Assembly (NCBI GenBank): GCA_036339735.1
Contig: JAYZAL010000037.1
Location: 1-19,931 of the forward strand
DNA from: Candidatus Poribacteria bacterium
GTDB lineage: Bacteria; Poribacteria; WGA-4E; UBA9662
Reading direction: 5' to 3'
DNA length: 19,931 nt
Position 1 is the first letter of the stretch. Each line of letters opens with the position of its first letter. Below the pieces are notes generated by a model. That model was not told where the DNA came from. It was given only the letters and a program-made list of their open reading frames with translations, and made no database searches. Below, in pieces: positions 3,643 through 17,731 of the stretch. A program made the position numbers and the translations under genes.

Positions 3643-6600
3643 ATGAAAACTTATACCCAAATGCCGAAGATTGTTTCGAGAGAAAGCAAGAATCAGATAT
3701 TTTATCCTTATTATTCGGTCATCATTTTTATTTTTTCGTTGGCGTTATCAATCAGGGTCGATGGAGCTATCGATCCGGTGTTTGTTTGGAAATTTAACCA
3801 AAGTTCTGGAACGGTAGCAATTGAATCAAAAACAGGACATGATGGGATAATTTTAGGTAGTCCTCAATGGGTAGACAGACCAGTTGACGATGATGTTGGT
3901 AATAAGGCCCTTCGATTTGATGGTATAAACGACTATGTGTCAGTACCTAATCATAATTTGATAAATACAGGAGGCCCTTGGTCTAGTAAAACCATTGTTA
4001 TCATATTTAAAGCGGCTGATACTTCAATAGCCAATAAGCAAATCCTTTATGAGCAAGGAGGCAATATTCGTGGTTTGAACATTTATATAGAAAATGGAAG
4101 ATTGTATGCTGGAGGATGGAATCAAAATCCAAGTGAAAGTAACTGGTCTGGAGAATGGGCTTCTACTCCAATTGAGTCTGATGTTTGGTATGAAGTTGCA
4201 CTGGTGTTAAGAAAGACTACTGATATTGTATCTTCGGACAAATTAGAATTATGGTTGGATGGTGAACTGAGAGCAACCGCTGCCGGCGGTAAACTATATA
4301 GTCATAGTGGAAACATTGGGATCGGAAATATCAATCAGTGGACAGAATTTCCCGACGGTGAATCCAACGACAACAAATTTTTTCAAGGTCAGATTGATGA
4401 AATTCGTCTTTATAATGATGTCTTGTTTGCAATTAGAGTTGAACCGACGTCTCTCACATTTACAGAAACGGTCGGTTTTGCTAATACATCATCGATTTCT
4501 ACAAACCTGCCTCCCAATTTAGACAGCGATTATTCACCTAACGAAGTGATTATAAAAATTGTGAATAACTCCTTGATTAGTAACCCAGAACAGTCGAATG
4601 GGACTAATTTCACGAACTCACCATCTCTCAACCAGCTTTGTGAAGAATTATCGGTAAGTCGAGTAACATCTGTTTTTGGTACACGACTTGGCTCATTAGG
4701 AAGTTTCTACCGGCTGGAGTTCGATTTGAACCAACCCTTATCAGATGTAATTGAGACCCTAGTGCAACACGAGCTGATTGAATTAGCACAACCCAACTAT
4801 ATCTATCGTCAGAAATTGATTCCCAATGATATCAATTATTCAAGCCAATGGGGATTGGCGCAAGTTAATGCTACCGACGGCTGGGATTATGAAACAGGTT
4901 CTTCCAATAATATAGTGGTGGCTATCATTGATTCAGGTATAGATTATAACCACGCAGATTTAACTACTAACATATGGAAAAACCTTGGGGAAATACCAGA
5001 AAACGAGATTGATGATGACGGAAATGGGTATATCGACGATGTATATGGTTGGGATTTTCATTCAATTCCTGAAGATAACCAGCCCAACGAAGGTGAGCAT
5101 GGTACTCACGTTGCTGGGATTGTAGGTGCTATATCTAACAATAATCAAGGTATCGCCGGAGTTATGTGGAGTTGTCAACTGATGGCAGTTCGGGTACTTG
5201 GAGATCAAGGTTCTTCAGATGAAGGTGGTTATACAAGTAATATTGCCAAAGGAATCACTTATGCGGTTCATAATGGAGCTAACATCATTAATATGAGCTT
5301 AGGCGCAGATTCGAATGATTTCACGCTTAAGCAAGCCATTGATTATGCTTACTCTCAAGGTATAGTACTTGTGGCAGCCGCTGGTAACGATAACACCACG
5401 ATAGAGAGTTACCCAGCAGCTTACGATAATGTAATATCTGTAGGTGCGACTGACACCAATAATAGTAGAGCTAATTTTTCTAATTATGGTAGTTGGGTTG
5501 ATATTGTCGCACCCGGAGTTGATATTCTCAGTACCGTAAATGGTTCTGATGGATATGGAAATAAAAGTGGTACTTCAATGTCTACTCCATTCGTCAGTGG
5601 TTTAGCTGGCCTTATTTTGGCTAAGAACCCATTGCTAAGTCCTAATCAAGTAACTAATACTATTCGGCAAAGCGCAGACCAGATCGAATGGATGACCGGC
5701 GAATTCATTGGTAGAATCAATGTTGAATCAGCTCTAAAGTATCAGGGTAATATTATAATATTCAACGATAGTAATGAAGGATTAAACATTTCAAGTATTT
5801 CTCTTGACAGCGGAAACGACTGGTTAGACCCAAGTATATCCTCCACTTCTATCCCAGCAGGTGGGTCTGTATCGGTTGGATTATCTTTAATATTAGGTGG
5901 AATGGATACTGGTACTTATAGTGATCAACTCATAATTCAATCCAATAATAGTCTTCCCTCAGTTTCATTTATTGATGTTTCGCTACAATTACAGAATTCC
6001 GCCCCGGTTATCACTTCTTTAACGGCAGAGACCAACCCATTACCAGAAAACCAAACTACTAATTTATCAATAGTCGCTCATGATAGTGACAACCATACAC
6101 TAAGTTTTGACTGGTCAGCTAGTCAAGGTCAACTCAGTAGTACAACTGGTCAATCAGTTACTTATACCCCACCGGATGTAGATCAAAATATAGCAGTTAC
6201 TATTGCTGCTACGGCAACTGATGGACATGGTGGAATAGCTACAGAAACACTGATTTTGAATATACAAACGGTCGATATTAATATCACCCCAGATCTGTTT
6301 GTTGGCTTTAATCTTTTAGCATTCCCAATTGACTCCAATACCAATCATACTGCACACACTTTACTAAATGAGATTACTAATGCTAGCTCAATTATGGAAT
6401 GGAAAGCCGACACTCAAAGCTGGAGTCAATCTTTTAAGGCTGGAAATAATAATCTGGGTGAAGATTTTAACATCCAACCCAACCAAGGATACTTGATAGA
6501 AATCGAGGAACCAACGGACTGGAGTTTTACTGGAGACCCCATTGTTACTCCGGCAACACTACAGCTCAAAGCGGGATTGAACTTAATTAGTATCCCTTAC

Positions 6601-7764
6601 CCTACTAGTTTGACAGCCAGTGGGGTCTTATCTACTATTCCAAACGGCCAAGTCTTGACCAGTTGGGAGTCATCTACCCAATCGTGGCGCTCTGTTTTTA
6701 AGACAGATGGTACGGTTCAAGGTAACGATTTCCCACTACATGGCGATAGAGGCTATTTTATTGGCGTTCCTCAGGATGTTTCTTGGACTCCCACGTCCCT
6801 CAGCGCCCCAGCAGTAGATCGGTATACCCAAACTGTCCTCAATCAGATATTACTTTCAGGTAATATTAATAAAATACAGGACCTAACTGTGGGGAATTTA
6901 ACGGCGTCCTCAGCCACGTTAGTTTTTCGCACAGACGCAGCTGGGAAAAGCCAACTTAAGTGGCGATCAATAGACGATAAGGTTTGGCACACAAAAACTG
7001 TAGACCAAGTTAGCAGAAGACAAAACCACTACCTGAATCTATCGGACCTAAGGCCAAATCATACCTATCTGATTCAAGCTGAAGTTTTTGGTCAAAATGA
7101 ACAAATCAAAAGAAGTGAAGTTATAAATTTCACGACTACATCCATCAACACTGGTCGACCAAAGGTGATTTTTGGTCAAGTTCTGTATCCTAATGGCCAG
7201 CCCAAAGTTGACGAACTAGTCATTTTAACAGCAAAAAAAGCACAGTTAATGATATCCAAGACAGACAAAAATGGATATTGGAACCTTAATCTTGGTAATA
7301 TGAAAACGCTAACCGGTCAGGCCTTCACGGACCTTAACGAAGTTTATTTTTCGCTATTGGGTAGCAATAAAATTTACCGACAAGTAGTCAAGGATTTGAT
7401 AATACAACAATCATCCACCATGTATTCCAATAGATACGAAGCAAATCAAGTGATGACGCAGGTTCAGCCTAACAAAACTAAAGTTGACCAAAACTACCCT
7501 AACCCTTTCAATCCCGAAACATGGATTCCCTTTCAATTACATACACCATCAACAGTTTATATAGAGATTTACAACTCGATTGGGAATATCGTTCGTCGGT
7601 TAGAATTGGGTCATTTACCCAGCGGCCTCTATCATAATAAGAAACGGTCCGGCTATTGGGACGGTTTGGATCAGACAGGAAAACCAGTGGCAAGTGGAAT
7701 ATATTTCTATATTTTGAAAGCGAACGGTTACCAAGAAAGCCGAAAAATGGTGGTTTTGAAATGA
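3643..7764 (+). CDS. Secreted multidomain S8 (subtilisin-like) serine protease: LamG-like domain, prodomain, S8, Ig/PKD-like domains, two ~80-aa repeats, FN3-like domain, C-terminal FlgD-Ig/T9SS-type-A-like sorting domain
   Basis: Catalytic triad IIDSGID (D430), HGTHVAG (H486), GTSMSTP (S645) and oxyanion AAGND. Ca-loop DDDGNGYIDD. LamG hallmarks ALRFDGINDYV and FFQGQIDEIRLYN. Tail NYPNPFNPETWIPFQL…WDGLDQTGKPVASGIYFY…RKMVVLK. The start could instead be the ATG at 3661. Confidence 0.93.
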   Translation: MKTYTQMPKIVSRESKNQIFYPYYSVIIFIFSLALSIRVDGAIDPVFVWKFNQSSGTVAIESKTGHDGIILGSPQWVDRPVDDDVGNKALRFDGINDYVSVPNHNLINTGGPWSSKTIVIIFKAADTSIANKQILYEQGGNIRGLNIYIENGRLYAGGWNQNPSESNWSGEWASTPIESDVWYEVALVLRKTTDIVSSDKLELWLDGELRATAAGGKLYSHSGNIGIGNINQWTEFPDGESNDNKFFQGQIDEIRLYNDVLFAIRVEPTSLTFTETVGFANTSSISTNLPPNLDSDYSPNEVIIKIVNNSLISNPEQSNGTNFTNSPSLNQLCEELSVSRVTSVFGTRLGSLGSFYRLEFDLNQPLSDVIETLVQHELIELAQPNYIYRQKLIPNDINYSSQWGLAQVNATDGWDYETGSSNNIVVAIIDSGIDYNHADLTTNIWKNLGEIPENEIDDDGNGYIDDVYGWDFHSIPEDNQPNEGEHGTHVAGIVGAISNNNQGIAGVMWSCQLMAVRVLGDQGSSDEGGYTSNIAKGITYAVHNGANIINMSLGADSNDFTLKQAIDYAYSQGIVLVAAAGNDNTTIESYPAAYDNVISVGATDTNNSRANFSNYGSWVDIVAPGVDILSTVNGSDGYGNKSGTSMSTPFVSGLAGLILAKNPLLSPNQVTNTIRQSADQIEWMTGEFIGRINVESALKYQGNIIIFNDSNEGLNISSISLDSGNDWLDPSISSTSIPAGGSVSVGLSLILGGMDTGTYSDQLIIQSNNSLPSVSFIDVSLQLQNSAPVITSLTAETNPLPENQTTNLSIVAHDSDNHTLSFDWSASQGQLSSTTGQSVTYTPPDVDQNIAVTIAATATDGHGGIATETLILNIQTVDINITPDLFVGFNLLAFPIDSNTNHTAHTLLNEITNASSIMEWKADTQSWSQSFKAGNNNLGEDFNIQPNQGYLIEIEEPTDWSFTGDPIVTPATLQLKAGLNLISIPYPTSLTASGVLSTIPNGQVLTSWESSTQSWRSVFKTDGTVQGNDFPLHGDRGYFIGVPQDVSWTPTSLSAPAVDRYTQTVLNQILLSGNINKIQDLTVGNLTASSATLVFRTDAAGKSQLKWRSIDDKVWHTKTVDQVSRRQNHYLNLSDLRPNHTYLIQAEVFGQNEQIKRSEVINFTTTSINTGRPKVIFGQVLYPNGQPKVDELVILTAKKAQLMISKTDKNGYWNLNLGNMKTLTGQAFTDLNEVYFSLLGSNKIYRQVVKDLIIQQSSTMYSNRYEANQVMTQVQPNKTKVDQNYPNPFNPETWIPFQLHTPSTVYIEIYNSIGNIVRRLELGHLPSGLYHNKKRSGYWDGLDQTGKPVASGIYFYILKANGYQESRKMVVLK
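6289..6792 (+). repeat. Two tandem ~80-aa protein-level repeats inside the S8 protease
   Basis: Repeat 1: LFVGFNLLAFP…WKADTQSWSQSFK…GEDFNIQPNQGYLIEIEEPTDW. Repeat 2: LKAGLNLISIP…WESSTQSWRSVFK…GNDFPLHGDRGYFIGVPQDVSW. Confidence 0.8.
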
Positions 7765-11592: not shown

Positions 11593-12993
11593 TTAACTAA
11601 CACTAGCTAAATAAGCCGTTAAATCACCTAATGCCCGCTGCGAATAGGCTTGGGCACGTTGTCTTTTTCTCATCCGTCTCCCTTTAGTTTTAGTTTCAAT
11701 TTGTAGAGGAGGAAGCAAACCAAAGTTAGCTTTCATCGGTTGAAAATCAGCAAGGCTAGCGTGTGTAACATAATGACAAAGTGCCCCAAGAATAGTAGTT
11801 ACTGGCAAAACCATCAACTTACGGCCAGTTAGCAAGTGAGCCATATTGTAGCCAGCCAAAAGACCCGTTGCTACATTGCCTACATAGCTTTCTACACCGG
11901 TGATCTGGCCAGCAAAAAATAAGTTCTCTCGTTTCCGGAACTGCATGGTTGGATGCAGTAGTGTAGGGGCTGATATGAAAGTATTACGGTGCATTTGACC
12001 AAAACGTACAAATTCTGCTTTATTTAATCCGGGGATTAACTGGAATACTCTTTTCTGCTCCGAAAACTTAAGGTTTGTCTGAAACCCAACAATATTGTAC
12101 AACGTACCAGCTATGTTATCTTGACGTAACTGGACCACAGCATGGGAACGGTGGTTAGTACGTGGATCCGTCAGCCCGACAGGTCGCATTGGTCCATAAG
12201 CGAGTGAATCTATACCTCTCTCAGCCATAATTTCGATTGGCAAACAACCTTCAAAAAATTGGTGAGCGCCAGCCTTGACGCCTGACTTGATAGCTTCCTC
12301 AAAACTATGTAACTCAATTCGATCGGCAGATATCAGGTTACAAACAAAATGTTCATATTGGTCTTTATCCATTGGACAATTTATATAATCTCCGACATCT
12401 AATTCGCCTTTCCCGTAACGTGACCCTCGGAATGCGATTTTCATATCAATCGATTCTTGACTAACTATAGGTGAAATAGCATCGAAAAAATAAAGGTGAT
12501 CTTCTCCTGAAATTTTTCCAATTGACTCAGCTAAAGGTGCAGATGTCAATGGACCTGAAGCAATAATTGTCGGACCATCAGGTATTTCGGTGATTTCTTC
12601 ACGTATTAAACGTATATGAGGTTGTGAGCGAATACGTTGGGTAATTAACTTCGAAAACTGTTCTCGGTCGACGGCTAAGGCTCCACCAGCAGGCACTGAT
12701 GTCTTGTCAGCACAATCCATCAGCATCGAACCTAGCTGACGCAATTCGGCTTTCAGGACTCCAGATGCTCTATCAGGCAAATCTGATCCCAGAGAATTCG
12801 AGCAAACGAGCTCACCTAGATTAGATGTTTGATGGGCTCCAGTTTCTACCGTGGGCCGCATTTCGAATAGATCTACACTAATGCCTTGTGAAGCTAGCTG
12901 CCAAGCAGCTTCACTTCCAGCTAAGCCTCCACCAATTACTGTAACGGTTGGTACTGATACATTATTTATCGTTTCTGACAACTGTCTTCTCAA
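11593..12993 (-). CDS. trmFO: FAD/folate-dependent tRNA (uracil-54-C5)-methyltransferase TrmFO (Gid)
   Basis: [88 protein letters not shown] start; exact start uncertain. Confidence 0.96.
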
Positions 12994-13041: not shown

Positions 13042-13578
13042 CTAGTTGCCTATCGGGGCAGAATTTCTCTCTTTGACGATATAATCTAAGATCTCTTCTG
13101 CATGTGAATTTAGGTTCATTCCAGTGTATATTTTCTCAATGATACCATCTGGATTTACTATAAATGTAATGCGTTTTAGCCAAAGCAGACCGTTAGCGCC
13201 ATACAAACGAGAGACATGTTTGTCTTTATCAGATAAGAGATGGAATGGTAGTTTATGCTTTTCCTTGAACGCCCTCAGTGATTTAGGGGAATCGTAACTG
13301 ATGCCAAGAACTATAATTTTTTCTCTTTCGTATGCTTGATAGATGTTGCGGAACCCGCAAGCTTGTTTAGTTCATCCAGGCGTATCAGCCTTTGGGAAAA
13401 AATAAATAACCACAGGTTGGCCTAGGAATTCTTTTAATGAGATATTCTCGTTGCTGTCTGATATTAGTGAGAAATCTGGCCCCTCTTGCCCTGCGACCAA
13501 AAGGTTTCTTTGGCTTTGATTCCGACTGATCAAAGCGGTACTTACAAGTACACAAATAGCGATAATTCCAATTTTCAT
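13042..13578 (-). CDS. bcp: Selenocysteine-containing peroxiredoxin, BCP/PrxQ subfamily (UGA at codon 69), with N-terminal hydrophobic signal/anchor; 178 aa
   Basis: Manual translation through TGA 13372-13374: …GQEGPDFSL…ISLKEFLGQPVVIYFFPKADTPG-(TGA)-TKQACGFRNIYQAYEREKIIVLGISYDSPKSLRAFKEKHKLPFHLLSDKDKHVSRLYGANGLLWLKRITFIVNPDGIIEKIYTGMNLNSHAEEILDYIVKERNSAPIGN-TAG (13042-13044). The TGA aligns with the peroxidatic Cys of the BCP motif FYPKA.TPGCT.EAC.FR. Confidence 0.9.
13345..13362 (-). promoter_or_regulatory. Putative bacterial SECIS element (mRNA hairpin 3' of the Sec UGA)
   Basis: mRNA reads UGA-ACUAAACAAGC-UUGCGG-GUU-CCGCAA-C. A perfect 6-bp stem (13346-13360) starts 11 nt after the UGA, its apical loop begins GU, and it extends by one G-C pair across a bulged C. 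Confidence 0.75.
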
Positions 13579-13952
13579 TTTATATATAATCCAATGAAAC
13601 TAAATATCTAAAGGTTTTATAGAGTTGCATCACCAGAGGCTTAAGGTGATGGTATTATTTGTTTGGTTCAGTGGTATGTGGAGGAGCTATTTACCACACC
13701 ATGTGGCATACTTCTTTCCGAATAACAAACAGACCTAACGTATATTTCCACTAACATGTTTTACATCCATTACTCAGGGGATACCCACAAAATGTACGTC
13801 CTGAACTCTACCGATTAACTTCTAATTAAGATTGAGATCTAGTTGTTCAAACTTCGTTCTTTATCTCTTAATTACGATAATTGTGTAGTGATTGTTTTCC
13901 CATGGTTACGTCTACAGACTGCTGTATAATGAACATTATGGAAAAGGTTACT

Positions 13953-14897
13953 TCAGCTTTTTAGATAGGATAAAGACTCAGAGTTAAACGGTGTGGGAAT
14001 TAGGTTAAACATTTCATACACACCGTCAGACTGACAAACATTTCCTTCAATTAGCATAGTAATTTGATCCTTAGTTATAGGAAACCAAGGAAACCCCCCT
14101 AGCAGAGCGCCAAGGGTTTTGATAGCAAAAACGGGGGCTGGAATTGTCCATTTTTTCTTGCCGTAAGCTCTAGAAATAATTGATATAATATCTTTCCAGT
14201 AATAGGTCTCTCCTCCAAGATGATAAGTTTTTTTGATTGTTTCTTCTTCGGTTAGTGATTTGACAAATACTTTTGCTACGTCTTTGACATGAATAGGTGA
14301 TAGTGCGAAATTACCAGCGTTAAACGGATTTAGACCTTTATGGAAATTTGGAGCTGGAATAGGTAAACTTAGCATGTCTTTTTTTAATTGTGAGCAAAAT
14401 TCTGGCCGACCTCCACCTCTTGGGTCTCCAAAAATGAGAGAAGGTCTAAAGATCGTATAGTCTAAGCCAGATTCCTTCAGATATTCTTCTGCTAACATTT
14501 TTGTGTTTTGATAACCCGTTCCTTCCTTTTTCACACCGTTAGCTGACATCAGGATAAACCTACTAACATTTAGCTCTTTCGCTGCATCAATACACCATTT
14601 TGCGGCATGAAAGTGTAAGTTTTCATATGTTAAGCCTTTAGACGGAAATTCTCGGATTACACCGACGTTGTAAATCACAGCATCACAACCTTCCAGCACT
14701 TCCAAAATCGCAGGTACCGAAGTACGATCATGATGATGGGACAAATCTCCGTAGACAATTTCACATTTCTCTGGTTGGAGTATCTTGGATTCAGATCCTT
14801 CCCTGATAAGAAGGCGCGGGACCATGTTATGACTAATTAGCTCATCTGTGATGTACGAGCCCACAAAACCTGTACCACCAATCAGTGCAACTTTCAT
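13953..14897 (-). CDS. NAD(P)-dependent epimerase/atypical SDR, complex I NDUFA9-like family
   Basis: MKVALIGGTGFVGSY, YQNTK (YxxxK), SGLDYTIFRPSLIFG, PIHVKDVA, FPITKDQITML. Confidence 0.88.
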   Translation of the reverse strand: MKVALIGGTGFVGSYITDELISHNMVPRLLIREGSESKILQPEKCEIVYGDLSHHHDRTSVPAILEVLEGCDAVIYNVGVIREFPSKGLTYENLHFHAAKWCIDAAKELNVSRFILMSANGVKKEGTGYQNTKMLAEEYLKESGLDYTIFRPSLIFGDPRGGGRPEFCSQLKKDMLSLPIPAPNFHKGLNPFNAGNFALSPIHVKDVAKVFVKSLTEEETIKKTYHLGGETYYWKDIISIISRAYGKKKWTIPAPVFAIKTLGALLGGFPWFPITKDQITMLIEGNVCQSDGVYEMFNLIPTPFNSESLSYLKS

Positions 14898-17237: not shown

Positions 17238-17416
17238 ATTTAGAAAATATCTCTACTTCTTGTTTTAGTCACTTCTATTGCTAGTTTATTACTTGTATCG
17301 AATTTTTTAATGTGTTGGTAGCTGGTTATTGTAGTGAAACGGCAAAGGAATCTTGAACAGGTTAAGTGGAGTTTTCTTTTCATTTGTTGACTTAGTGTTG
17401 TTCTGTTTGCTTCGGA

Positions 17417-17731
17417 TCATGATTGCCGATCGATAATTTCGATGGAGTTTGAATCAAGGTCTTCAGTATAAACATAACCTATGCCGTCGCGATGGTATTT
17501 GATTTCGGTATTGAGTGATAATTTGGTATCTACAATAGCAAAGTGATTGGGATGTTGTGTTTTTGTCACCAGTGCTAAGTTTATATTCTGAAATGAAAGT
17601 AAAGCCCACGTCTCGTCTTCATACTTAAGATTGCAGTTGAACCGTTTAAGATAGTATTGAGCAGACTCTTTCACATTCTCTACTTGGATAGCGATGTGAT
17701 CAACAATTGATAAGTTACTTTTCATTTCCAT
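17417..17731 (-). CDS. VOC/glyoxalase-family protein
   Basis: IVDHIAIQVENVKESAQYY…F, HPNHFAI, YTEDLDSNSIEII give the H/H/E metal-ligand pattern of the VOC fold. Confidence 0.85.
   Translation of the reverse strand: MEMKSNLSIVDHIAIQVENVKESAQYYLKRFNCNLKYEDETWALLSFQNINLALVTKTQHPNHFAIVDTKLSLNTEIKYHRDGIGYVYTEDLDSNSIEIIDRQS

Follow-up and report, generated by a model that had tools for sequence, protein, structure and literature searches.

A PrxQ/BCP-type peroxiredoxin with a predicted selenocysteine at its peroxidatic position in a marine bacterium related to Poribacteria

Results

The locus and its reading frame

We analysed a stretch of 19,931 nucleotides (nt) of contig JAYZAL010000037.1, hereafter called the window, which contains on its minus strand a gene predicted to encode a selenocysteine (Sec)-containing peroxiredoxin. 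According to translation table 11, the open reading frame (ORF) spans only 13372..13578 (minus strand), encodes 68 amino acids and terminates at ...FFPKADTPG-TGA. Translation of 13578..13042 with TGA as Sec (U) gave 178 residues with a single U (U69) and a TAG end, and with zero other stops or frameshifts. Codon 69 is embedded in the motif FFPKADTPG-U-TKQAC, and the 109 codons 3' of the TGA supply the remainder of an AhpC/TSA domain. Coordinates of all features are listed in Table 1.

The original prediction, made from the letters of the window, described a BCP/PrxQ peroxiredoxin with UGA at the peroxidatic cysteine, a resolving cysteine five residues on and a frame that stays open for 109 codons without another lesion. 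The translation agrees with the latter point, and the Pfam match, the alignment with 2cx3, the structural model and the Foldseek search described below agree with the former.

The genome to which the window belongs (G000) comprises 4.32 Mb in 107 contigs, is 92% complete and has a GC content of 40.6%. It was compared with 40 relatives in an order-level set of 41 genomes, of which G001 and G002 are members of the same genus.

Conservation of the in-frame TGA

Orthologues in G002 (92% amino acid identity) and G001 (74%) have 178 codons each, with TGA at codon 69, and one same-genus genome also contains a 56% identical paralogue in which the TGA is kept. When the closest proteins were used to seed a metagenome scan, 80 homologues were obtained, with TGA as the active-site codon in 16 and TGT or TGC (TGY) in 64. 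Homologues thus alternate between the two at codon 69, which was one of the checks named in the original prediction. Together with 4 genome loci, the 16 metagenome loci make up the 20 Sec forms of this study, all with TGA at the position of codon 69, versus 64 Cys forms, all from metagenomes. Three loci with an in-frame TGA elsewhere in the match (L059, L062, L078) were counted as Cys forms because their active-site codon is TGY. The pattern at codon 69 is well beyond what chance would produce.

In the protein collections, the 17 closest clusters have tryptophan in the U69 column and the more distant clusters have cysteine. For three of the former (L019, L020, L041) the tryptophan column could be matched to DNA, and the codon was TGA each time. 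Public records of the gene family, found in the clusters of P0003, P0007, P0010 and P0023, are stubs of 68 or 69 amino acids, C-terminal pieces of 80-123 amino acids, or full-length proteins with tryptophan; entries of 80-100 amino acids are called 'hypothetical proteins'. The tryptophan at the catalytic site results from gene callers reading the TGA as Trp, and the stubs and pieces show that pipelines split or truncate the gene, as the original prediction had supposed.

We calculated the ratio of nonsynonymous to synonymous substitution rates (dN/dS) by the Nei-Gojobori method, treating codons before and after the TGA separately. For codons 70-178, dN/dS was 0.080 between G000 and G002 and 0.065 between G000 and G001; the corresponding values for codons 1-68 were 0.124 and 0.065. 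Strong purifying selection acts on the downstream half, and the relaxed selection that would have accompanied decay was looked for and ruled out. These values bear on the view that a recent nonsense mutation has turned the locus into a pseudogene, from which a 68-residue stub or nothing is made. The stop of the table-11 ORF at codon 69, the stubs and C-terminal pieces in public records and the missing tRNA-Sec in the G000 assembly (see below) would all fit a nonsense mutation. However, it would leave unexplained why the TGA is kept in the 92% and 74% identical orthologues, the 56% identical paralogue and 16 metagenome homologues, why dN/dS downstream is 0.065-0.080 without any further lesion, and why C74 and R136, both beyond the TGA, are invariant. 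We regard a nonsense mutation as very improbable.

Since the window belongs to a draft assembly (107 contigs), an assembly or sequencing error at a TGT or TGC codon is conceivable. Two DNA runs (X9, X12) and one RNA library (X15) provided contigs that align with the gene stretch, and none of them has an alternative letter at 13372-13374. The X9 contig (3626 nt) covers the entire gene stretch with a sole difference at 13055; X9 may be a source of this DNA. The X12 contigs cover 13315-13375 and 13346-13700 with zero differences, and the X15 contig (294 nt) covers 13247-13539, including the TGA, with one difference at 13453. RNA runs X16-X20 contain parts of the gene stretch only, and the coverage of X16 (13392-13677) stops short of the TGA. 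Since the TGA is also present in the separately assembled G001, G002 and metagenome contigs, the chance of an error at this codon is negligible, in line with the original prediction.

TGA serves as the stop codon in 369 of the 1661 G000 ORFs of at least 300 amino acids. Taken together, these data confirmed that the TGA at codon 69 is neither a lesion nor an error nor a change of the genetic code. A Gracilibacteria locus, one of three obtained in a single-protein search of genome contigs, was set aside; it contains many TGAs, which reflect a different genetic code.

Protein family and active site

The read-through product matched the Pfam family AhpC-TSA across the TGA, and Redoxin matched too. 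The best NCBIfam model was that of the thioredoxin-dependent thiol peroxidase (NF006960; PRK09437), with 132.6 bits. The model of the ResA thiol-disulfide oxidoreductase subfamily scored 59 bits. The PrxU model (NF040737) scored 39.5 bits against a cut-off of 270, so that the protein is not PrxU. Its best solved relatives by sequence are the BCP/PrxQ proteins 3drn (5.7e-33) and 2cx3 (6.7e-24). In the 2cx3 alignment, U69 stands opposite the first and C74 opposite the second cysteine; the deposited 3drn chain has serine at both redox positions.

An AlphaFold model, built from an alignment of 28 sequences, had a mean predicted local distance difference test score of 88.1, with values >90 in the peroxiredoxin domain. 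In this model, U69 and C74 are predicted to share helix 67-78. The top Foldseek matches of the model were all BCP/PrxQ proteins, led by Bcp1, BcpB and PrxQ, with template modelling (TM) scores of 0.84-0.89 normalised to the target; the match with 3drn (Bcp1) had a TM score of 0.89 and a root mean square deviation of 1.8. Residues T66, P67, C74, R77 and R136 are invariant among the 28 homologues, and P62 is nearly so. The putative active site is that of a peroxiredoxin, PxxxTxx(C/U)...R, in the CP-x4-CR arrangement of one PrxQ subclass. We consider it likely, with a probability of roughly 0.88, that the product is an atypical 2-Cys peroxiredoxin of the PrxQ/BCP type, with a predicted selenocysteine as its peroxidatic residue.

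The main function of a genuine selenoprotein of this fold might also be that of a thiol/selenol-disulfide oxidoreductase or of a redox relay serving envelope proteins. Such a role would suit the export-like N-terminal segment, the 59 bits against the ResA model, the narrowly missed cut-off of the curated peroxidase model (see Discussion) and the presence in G000 of several exported paralogues of the TlpA/ResA type, which have UxxC or CxxC. It is at odds with the full peroxiredoxin signature of P62, T66, U69 and R136, with the PrxQ-typical x4 spacing to C74 in place of CxxC, and with the nearest relatives in sequence and fold, which are all peroxidases. Hence, a main role as oxidoreductase appears unlikely.

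Predicted export and catalytic cycle

Solved cytoplasmic BCPs align with the protein from residue 25-29 onward only. In the structural model, the N-terminus is predicted, with low confidence, to form a helix (residues 3-21), after which comes a disordered linker. The closest Sec forms share a conserved hydrophobic N-terminus, and similar segments occur in some Cys homologues. This pattern suggests that residues 1-24 are a signal peptide or signal anchor, and that export or anchoring places the enzyme in the cell envelope.

From the anatomy of the gene and the established decoding of Sec in bacteria we infer the following sequence of events. At UGA-69 of the translated message, SelB carrying Sec-tRNA(Sec) would bind a hairpin 11 nt downstream, and Sec would be inserted instead of termination. 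By analogy with the family, T66 and R136 would activate the selenolate of U69, which would reduce H2O2 or an organic hydroperoxide and become a selenenic acid. C74, on the same helix, would then attack to form an intramolecular selenenylsulfide, which would be re-reduced by a reductant with a thioredoxin fold. In the cell envelope, this reductant may be a thioredoxin-like protein fed by DsbD/CcdA. In G000, one DsbD_TM gene occurs together with several TlpA-like paralogues that look exported; these could form the electron feed to an envelope peroxiredoxin. In Caulobacter, a peroxiredoxin of the cell envelope is reported to have a comparable feed.

Selenocysteine machinery

G000 contains selB (362 bits; cut-off 242), selA (579; 268) and selD (359; 125). 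The selD gene (L009:1441-2500; G000:C70:27515-28441) itself has one in-frame TGA, U31 in SCAGUASK, which we take to be the Cys/Sec position of SelD.

The tRNA-Sec gene, selC, was not found in the G000 assembly with either the Rfam model RF01852 or ARAGORN, which listed 34 tRNAs. The best RF01852 match in G000 reached 45.2 bits against a cut-off of 47 and is a tRNA-Ser(tga), and the near-threshold matches are tRNA-Ser and tRNA-Leu; these candidates were rejected. Likewise, no tRNAs for Cys, Glu, Lys and Ile are present in the assembly, which indicates that its tRNA set is incomplete. RF01852 was above the cut-off in 20 of the 21 genomes of the order, both genus members included (73.6 and 72.8 bits), and ARAGORN reported tRNA-SeC(tca) in both same-genus genomes. 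The initial 2.5 kb of the selC locus of G002 matches contig C90 of G000 to 2 nt from the end of C90, which thus terminates 2.5 kb short of the syntenic selC position. Because C90 ends before this position, the absence of selC from G000 is best explained by an assembly break.

In the two same-genus genomes, the distance between selC (L128 5001-5094; L129 3001-3094) and a contig end is 581 and 25 nt. The assemblies of all three genus genomes are broken by something adjoining selC.

The presence of the Sec trait, as foreseen in the original prediction, was thus established for selA, selB and selD, while selC is missing from the assembly, most likely owing to a contig break. Furthermore, the genome comparison shows that the Sec trait extends through the whole order related to Poribacteria.

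These genes also bear on a read-through of the UGA as tryptophan or cysteine, by near-cognate decoding or a reassigned code, which would give an ordinary or inactive peroxiredoxin. Some gene callers do put tryptophan at the U69 site, and the evidence for the recoding hairpin is only moderate. Against such a read-through stand the use of TGA as the stop of 369 of 1661 long ORFs, the loss of activity expected from tryptophan at the catalytic cysteine position, selA, selB and a Sec-type selD in G000 with selC in all but one of 21 genomes of the order, and four other TGAs at redox motifs in G000. This alternative is improbable, and insertion of selenocysteine remains the preferred reading.

A candidate SECIS element

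Bacterial Sec insertion sequences (SECIS) are stem-loops just 3' of the UGA with a G in the apical loop. At this locus, a predicted hairpin of 6 base pairs (UUGCGG-GUU-CCGCAA) with a GUU loop begins 11 nt past the UGA, and the codon of the resolving cysteine, C74, forms part of its stem. A stretch of 17 nt is identical in the three orthologues, at a distance at which synonymous sites are saturated (50 of 69 synonymous sites changed versus G001). In the 56% identical paralogue, CGC has become CGT, which turns a G-C pair into a G-U pair.

All six pairs can be formed in 13 of the 20 Sec forms versus 1 of the 64 Cys forms, with a mean of 5.4 versus 4.06 pairs. Codon choice among the 16 Sec forms with the peptide ACGFR was nearly uniform: TGC in 16/16, GGG in 15/16, TTC in 16/16 and an arginine codon CGN in 16/16, at loci that mostly have a GC content of 24-46%. 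The frequencies of TGC, GGG, TTC and CGC in G000 are 0.32, 0.14, 0.31 and 0.10, respectively. Two loci (L060, L091) have GAG...TTT, a compensatory replacement of G-C by A-U, and in a third (L095; peptide ACSLRD) the hairpin is shifted by one base with its GUU loop unchanged. From this comparison of sequences, the hairpin is probably the SECIS.

In two marine DNA runs, extra contigs from relatives (90-95% identity) align with the window over a core of 63-65 nt within 13346-13410 only and diverge on both sides. The segment 13346-13410, which takes in the active site and the hairpin down to its 3' foot, is a core conserved at the nucleotide level across related genes.

Other selenocysteine genes, lineage and evolution

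G000 has 10 AhpC/TSA loci, five with an in-frame TGA at the redox motif and five with cysteine. Among the matches to the focal protein listed for the whole order, every one at E <3.3e-12 has one TGA, and 22 are without TGA. All 20 loci that were fetched have U in the active-site column. Tandem AhpC/TSA pairs with TGA at T-x-x-U recur across the order (L021-L037).

The closest named homologue (L038; 92% identity) comes from a metagenome-assembled genome of a Candidatus Poribacteria bacterium, and the cluster of the paralogue includes one fragment annotated as 'hypothetical protein [Candidatus Poribacteria bacterium]'. At least half of the sampled words of the gene stretch were found in 14 DNA entries with the label marine or seawater metagenome. 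Six of the 14, which come from 4 studies, carry no flag as a possible source, and contigs of two of the six cover the stretch. The host is a marine bacterium related to Poribacteria, which fits the original suggestion of a possible poribacterial origin.

In an IQ-TREE phylogeny of 84 sequences (quick search, midpoint-rooted), 18 of the 20 Sec forms fall into one group, the focal gene among them. A Cys form on a long branch (L085) sits beside this group without clear resolution, and the split has a support of 90% in the Shimodaira-Hasegawa approximate likelihood ratio test. The remaining two Sec forms (L060, L072) are placed apart from the main group, within a Cys clade that has 96% support. 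Because of this placement, the tree suggests at least two switches between Cys and Sec.

Neighbouring genes and other features of the window

The gene downstream of the peroxiredoxin belongs to the GIDA family (Table 1); by its length, we take it to be TrmFO/Gid-like. A GIDA gene also adjoins the orthologue downstream in L038. Further genes of the window encode a photolyase, an SDR protein and a DUF2867/NmrA protein. The annotation of the surrounding genes revealed no functional tie between these neighbours and the peroxiredoxin. Upstream of the peroxiredoxin start, a gap of 374 nt (13579-13952) has neither an ORF of at least 60 amino acids nor an Rfam match at gathering score. A scan for promoters and terminators around the peroxiredoxin gene gave site numbers that were not above those of shuffled sequences; a plus-strand 'terminator' at 13346-13360 was rejected as the SECIS hairpin seen from the opposite strand.

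A candidate second selenoprotein at 17240-17731 (minus strand) was also rejected. It consists of a 104-residue ORF (17417..17731) without a Pfam match that ends in TGA, followed by a read-through tail of 59 residues that reaches to the next gene and does not look coding; from the look of this tail, the TGA was taken to be an ordinary stop. Elsewhere, 3643-7764 (plus strand) encodes a subtilase of 1373 residues (Peptidase_S8, 8.6e-63) with Laminin_G_3 and Ig-like domains, and with weak sub-threshold matches to C-terminal sorting domains of type IX secretion (CHU_C, Por_Secre_tail). Two adjacent ORFs on the minus strand, 4-1284 (426 amino acids) and 1298-2245 (315 amino acids), have no Pfam family at E <=0.001.

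Table 1. Features of the peroxiredoxin locus in the window and of related genes elsewhere in the genome (G000)
Feature	Coordinates	Strand	Remarks
Complete predicted selenoprotein gene, 178 codons	13578..13042	-	ATG 13578-13576, TAG 13044-13042; same-length orthologues in G002 and G001
UGA codon 69, predicted peroxidatic position, motif P62-x3-T66-x2-U69	13372..13374	-	aligned with the peroxidatic Cys of 2cx3
Predicted resolving Cys, codon 74 (U-x4-C)	13357..13359	-	invariant column; aligned with the second Cys of 2cx3
N-terminal extension, residues 1-24: K2, hydrophobic I3-I17, polar RNQSQRN linker	13507..13578	-	putative signal peptide or anchor
AhpC/TSA domain, residues 30-149, including T66 and R136	13132..13491	-	Pfam PF00578, 3e-34; same range in genome search
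Candidate SECIS hairpin UUGCGG-GUU-CCGCAA	13346..13360	-	predicted fold; overlaps codons A73-C74-G75-F76-R77-N78
GIDA-family flavoprotein gene	11593..12993	-	Pfam GIDA, 2.3e-93; starts 48 nt past the peroxiredoxin stop
NmrA-like NAD(P)-binding protein gene	13953-14897		upstream of the peroxiredoxin
Tandem AhpC/TSA pair, FTGGUT and MTPGUT	G000:C11:46668-47570		TGA at T-x-x-U
TlpA/ResA-like gene, WUGSC	G000:C16:43894-44259		export-like N-terminus
Thioredoxin-fold protein, 371 amino acids, LUPVC	G000:C87:70979-71404
Cys paralogue, WCQPC	G000:C87:71583-71948		adjoins the LUPVC gene

Discussion

Several observations weigh against the interpretation of the locus as an exported, selenocysteine-decoding peroxidase. 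The score of 132.6 bits, for which U was replaced by C and the extra N-terminal segment was kept, narrowly misses the equivalog cut-off of NF006960 (140 bits). Export is argued from the sequence of the N-terminus, tRNA-Sec was not found in the G000 assembly, and the RNA-library contig of X15 may stem from contaminating DNA. The candidate SECIS hairpin is short, with a minimum free energy z-score of -0.65, and 50 of 200 shuffles folded equally well. Since it overlaps the codons for the peptide A-C-G-F-R-N/D, four of its six pairs are nearly forced, and full pairing (6/6) would arise by chance in about 15% of cases, as estimated from the codon usage of G000. In a formal count, 90% of the cells were paired versus 38-72% in slid controls; covariation was confined to a single pair, and the observed paired fraction was attained by 78 of 500 shuffles. 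The whole window gave no match to Rfam at gathering thresholds, so that no curated SECIS family applies. The original prediction of a SECIS 3' of the UGA thus stands as far as the presence of a hairpin 11 nt on is concerned; in folding energy and paired fraction the hairpin did not rise above shuffled sequences.

Sec-containing peroxiredoxins with a TxxU motif are listed as an established family of prokaryotic selenoproteins in a review (PMC13188914). The Sargasso Sea selenoproteome (2005) included 43 Prx (TxxU) sequences under COG1225, and both this survey and the Global Ocean Sampling selenoproteome (2008) count Prx (TxxU) among the most abundant families, the latter with 253 Sec sequences in 34 samples versus 7,348 Cys homologues (PMC2398784). 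SelA and SelB were reported as enriched in bins of sponge symbionts of various phyla (PMC5649159), and a Sec-containing hydrogenase was reported from Poribacteria (PMC13582414). In the literature that we searched on Poribacteria selenoproteins and on Sec-BCP, there was no description of this protein in Poribacteria, although supplements may list it.

The focal gene shares with the marine Prx (TxxU) family (pfam00578/COG1225) a Sec in T-x-x-U of the AhpC/TSA domain, a marine habitat and abundant Cys homologues. A Tara member of the cluster of the paralogue is tagged COG1225 K03564. We take COG1225 to be the Bcp COG. The identity of the focal gene with marine Prx (TxxU) is drawn from the motif, the Pfam/COG label and the habitat rather than from a direct comparison of sequences. 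Unlike the focal gene, the marine reports are, in the portions available, read-level catalogues without an organism, an export signal or a description of a SECIS. The focal gene belongs to a kind of Sec-peroxiredoxin known from marine bacteria since 2005. The assignment to a lineage, the probable export and a probable minimal SECIS inside the catalytic motif are modest additions. With respect to the novelty claimed in the original prediction, the lineage is indeed undescribed in the Poribacteria literature searched, whereas the N-terminal export segment also occurs in Cys homologues.

PrxU, reportedly the selenocysteine peroxiredoxin of Eubacterium acidaminophilum and said to have been described by Sohling et al. 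in 2001, is likewise a bacterial peroxiredoxin with Sec as its peroxidatic residue. In contrast to the focal protein, PrxU (NF040737) belongs to a different subfamily, has a longer model (233 positions) and comes from a strict anaerobe. The Cys-type PrxQ/BCP proteins, such as Bcp1 of S. solfataricus (3drn), PrxQ of A. pernix (2cx3/4gqf) and PrxQ of X. campestris (5iiz), resemble the focal protein in fold (TM 0.84-0.89) and in the PxxxTxxC...R site, and 2cx3 has the same CP-x4-CR arrangement. These solved proteins differ by having Cys for Sec, and they lack the N-terminal hydrophobic extension and the recoding hairpin. Within the order, the 'YPKDFTGGUT...' paralogues, which form tandem pairs such as the one on C11 of G000, share the AhpC/TSA domain and a TGA at the same aligned position, but they are only 28-37% identical to the focal protein and many lack the cysteine at x4 (UTAELQS). 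Their SECIS differs from that of the focal gene and is more classical; some 17 nt past the UGA, a UCGCUC/GAGCGA stem carries the loop CGGGAUAAAUU of 11 nt.

A bolder proposal, to which we would give somewhat longer odds than even, is that in this lineage one set of nucleotides serves both as recoding signal and as catalytic motif, with a minimal SECIS built from the A-C-G-F-R codons. Combined with the Sec-encoded AhpC/TSA paralogues found across the order, this would mean that most of the thiol-peroxidase defence of pelagic Poribacteria, its exported arm included, depends on selenium. If true, a SECIS within the motif would explain why G75-F76 is frozen in the Sec forms and free in the Cys forms. 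PrxQ proteins of the CP-x4-CR type would then be pre-adapted to a change from Cys to Sec via a single TGY to TGA substitution plus a few synonymous changes, an idea that fits the at least two independent switches in the tree.

The focal gene leaves knowledge about Sec-peroxiredoxins as such unchanged, and adds a genome-resolved, probably exported example to a family so far known mainly from anonymous marine reads. In G000, UGA recoding is needed for five of the 10 AhpC/TSA loci. Since the family is recorded as stubs, fragments and Trp forms, the antioxidant repertoire of these marine bacteria is under-counted.

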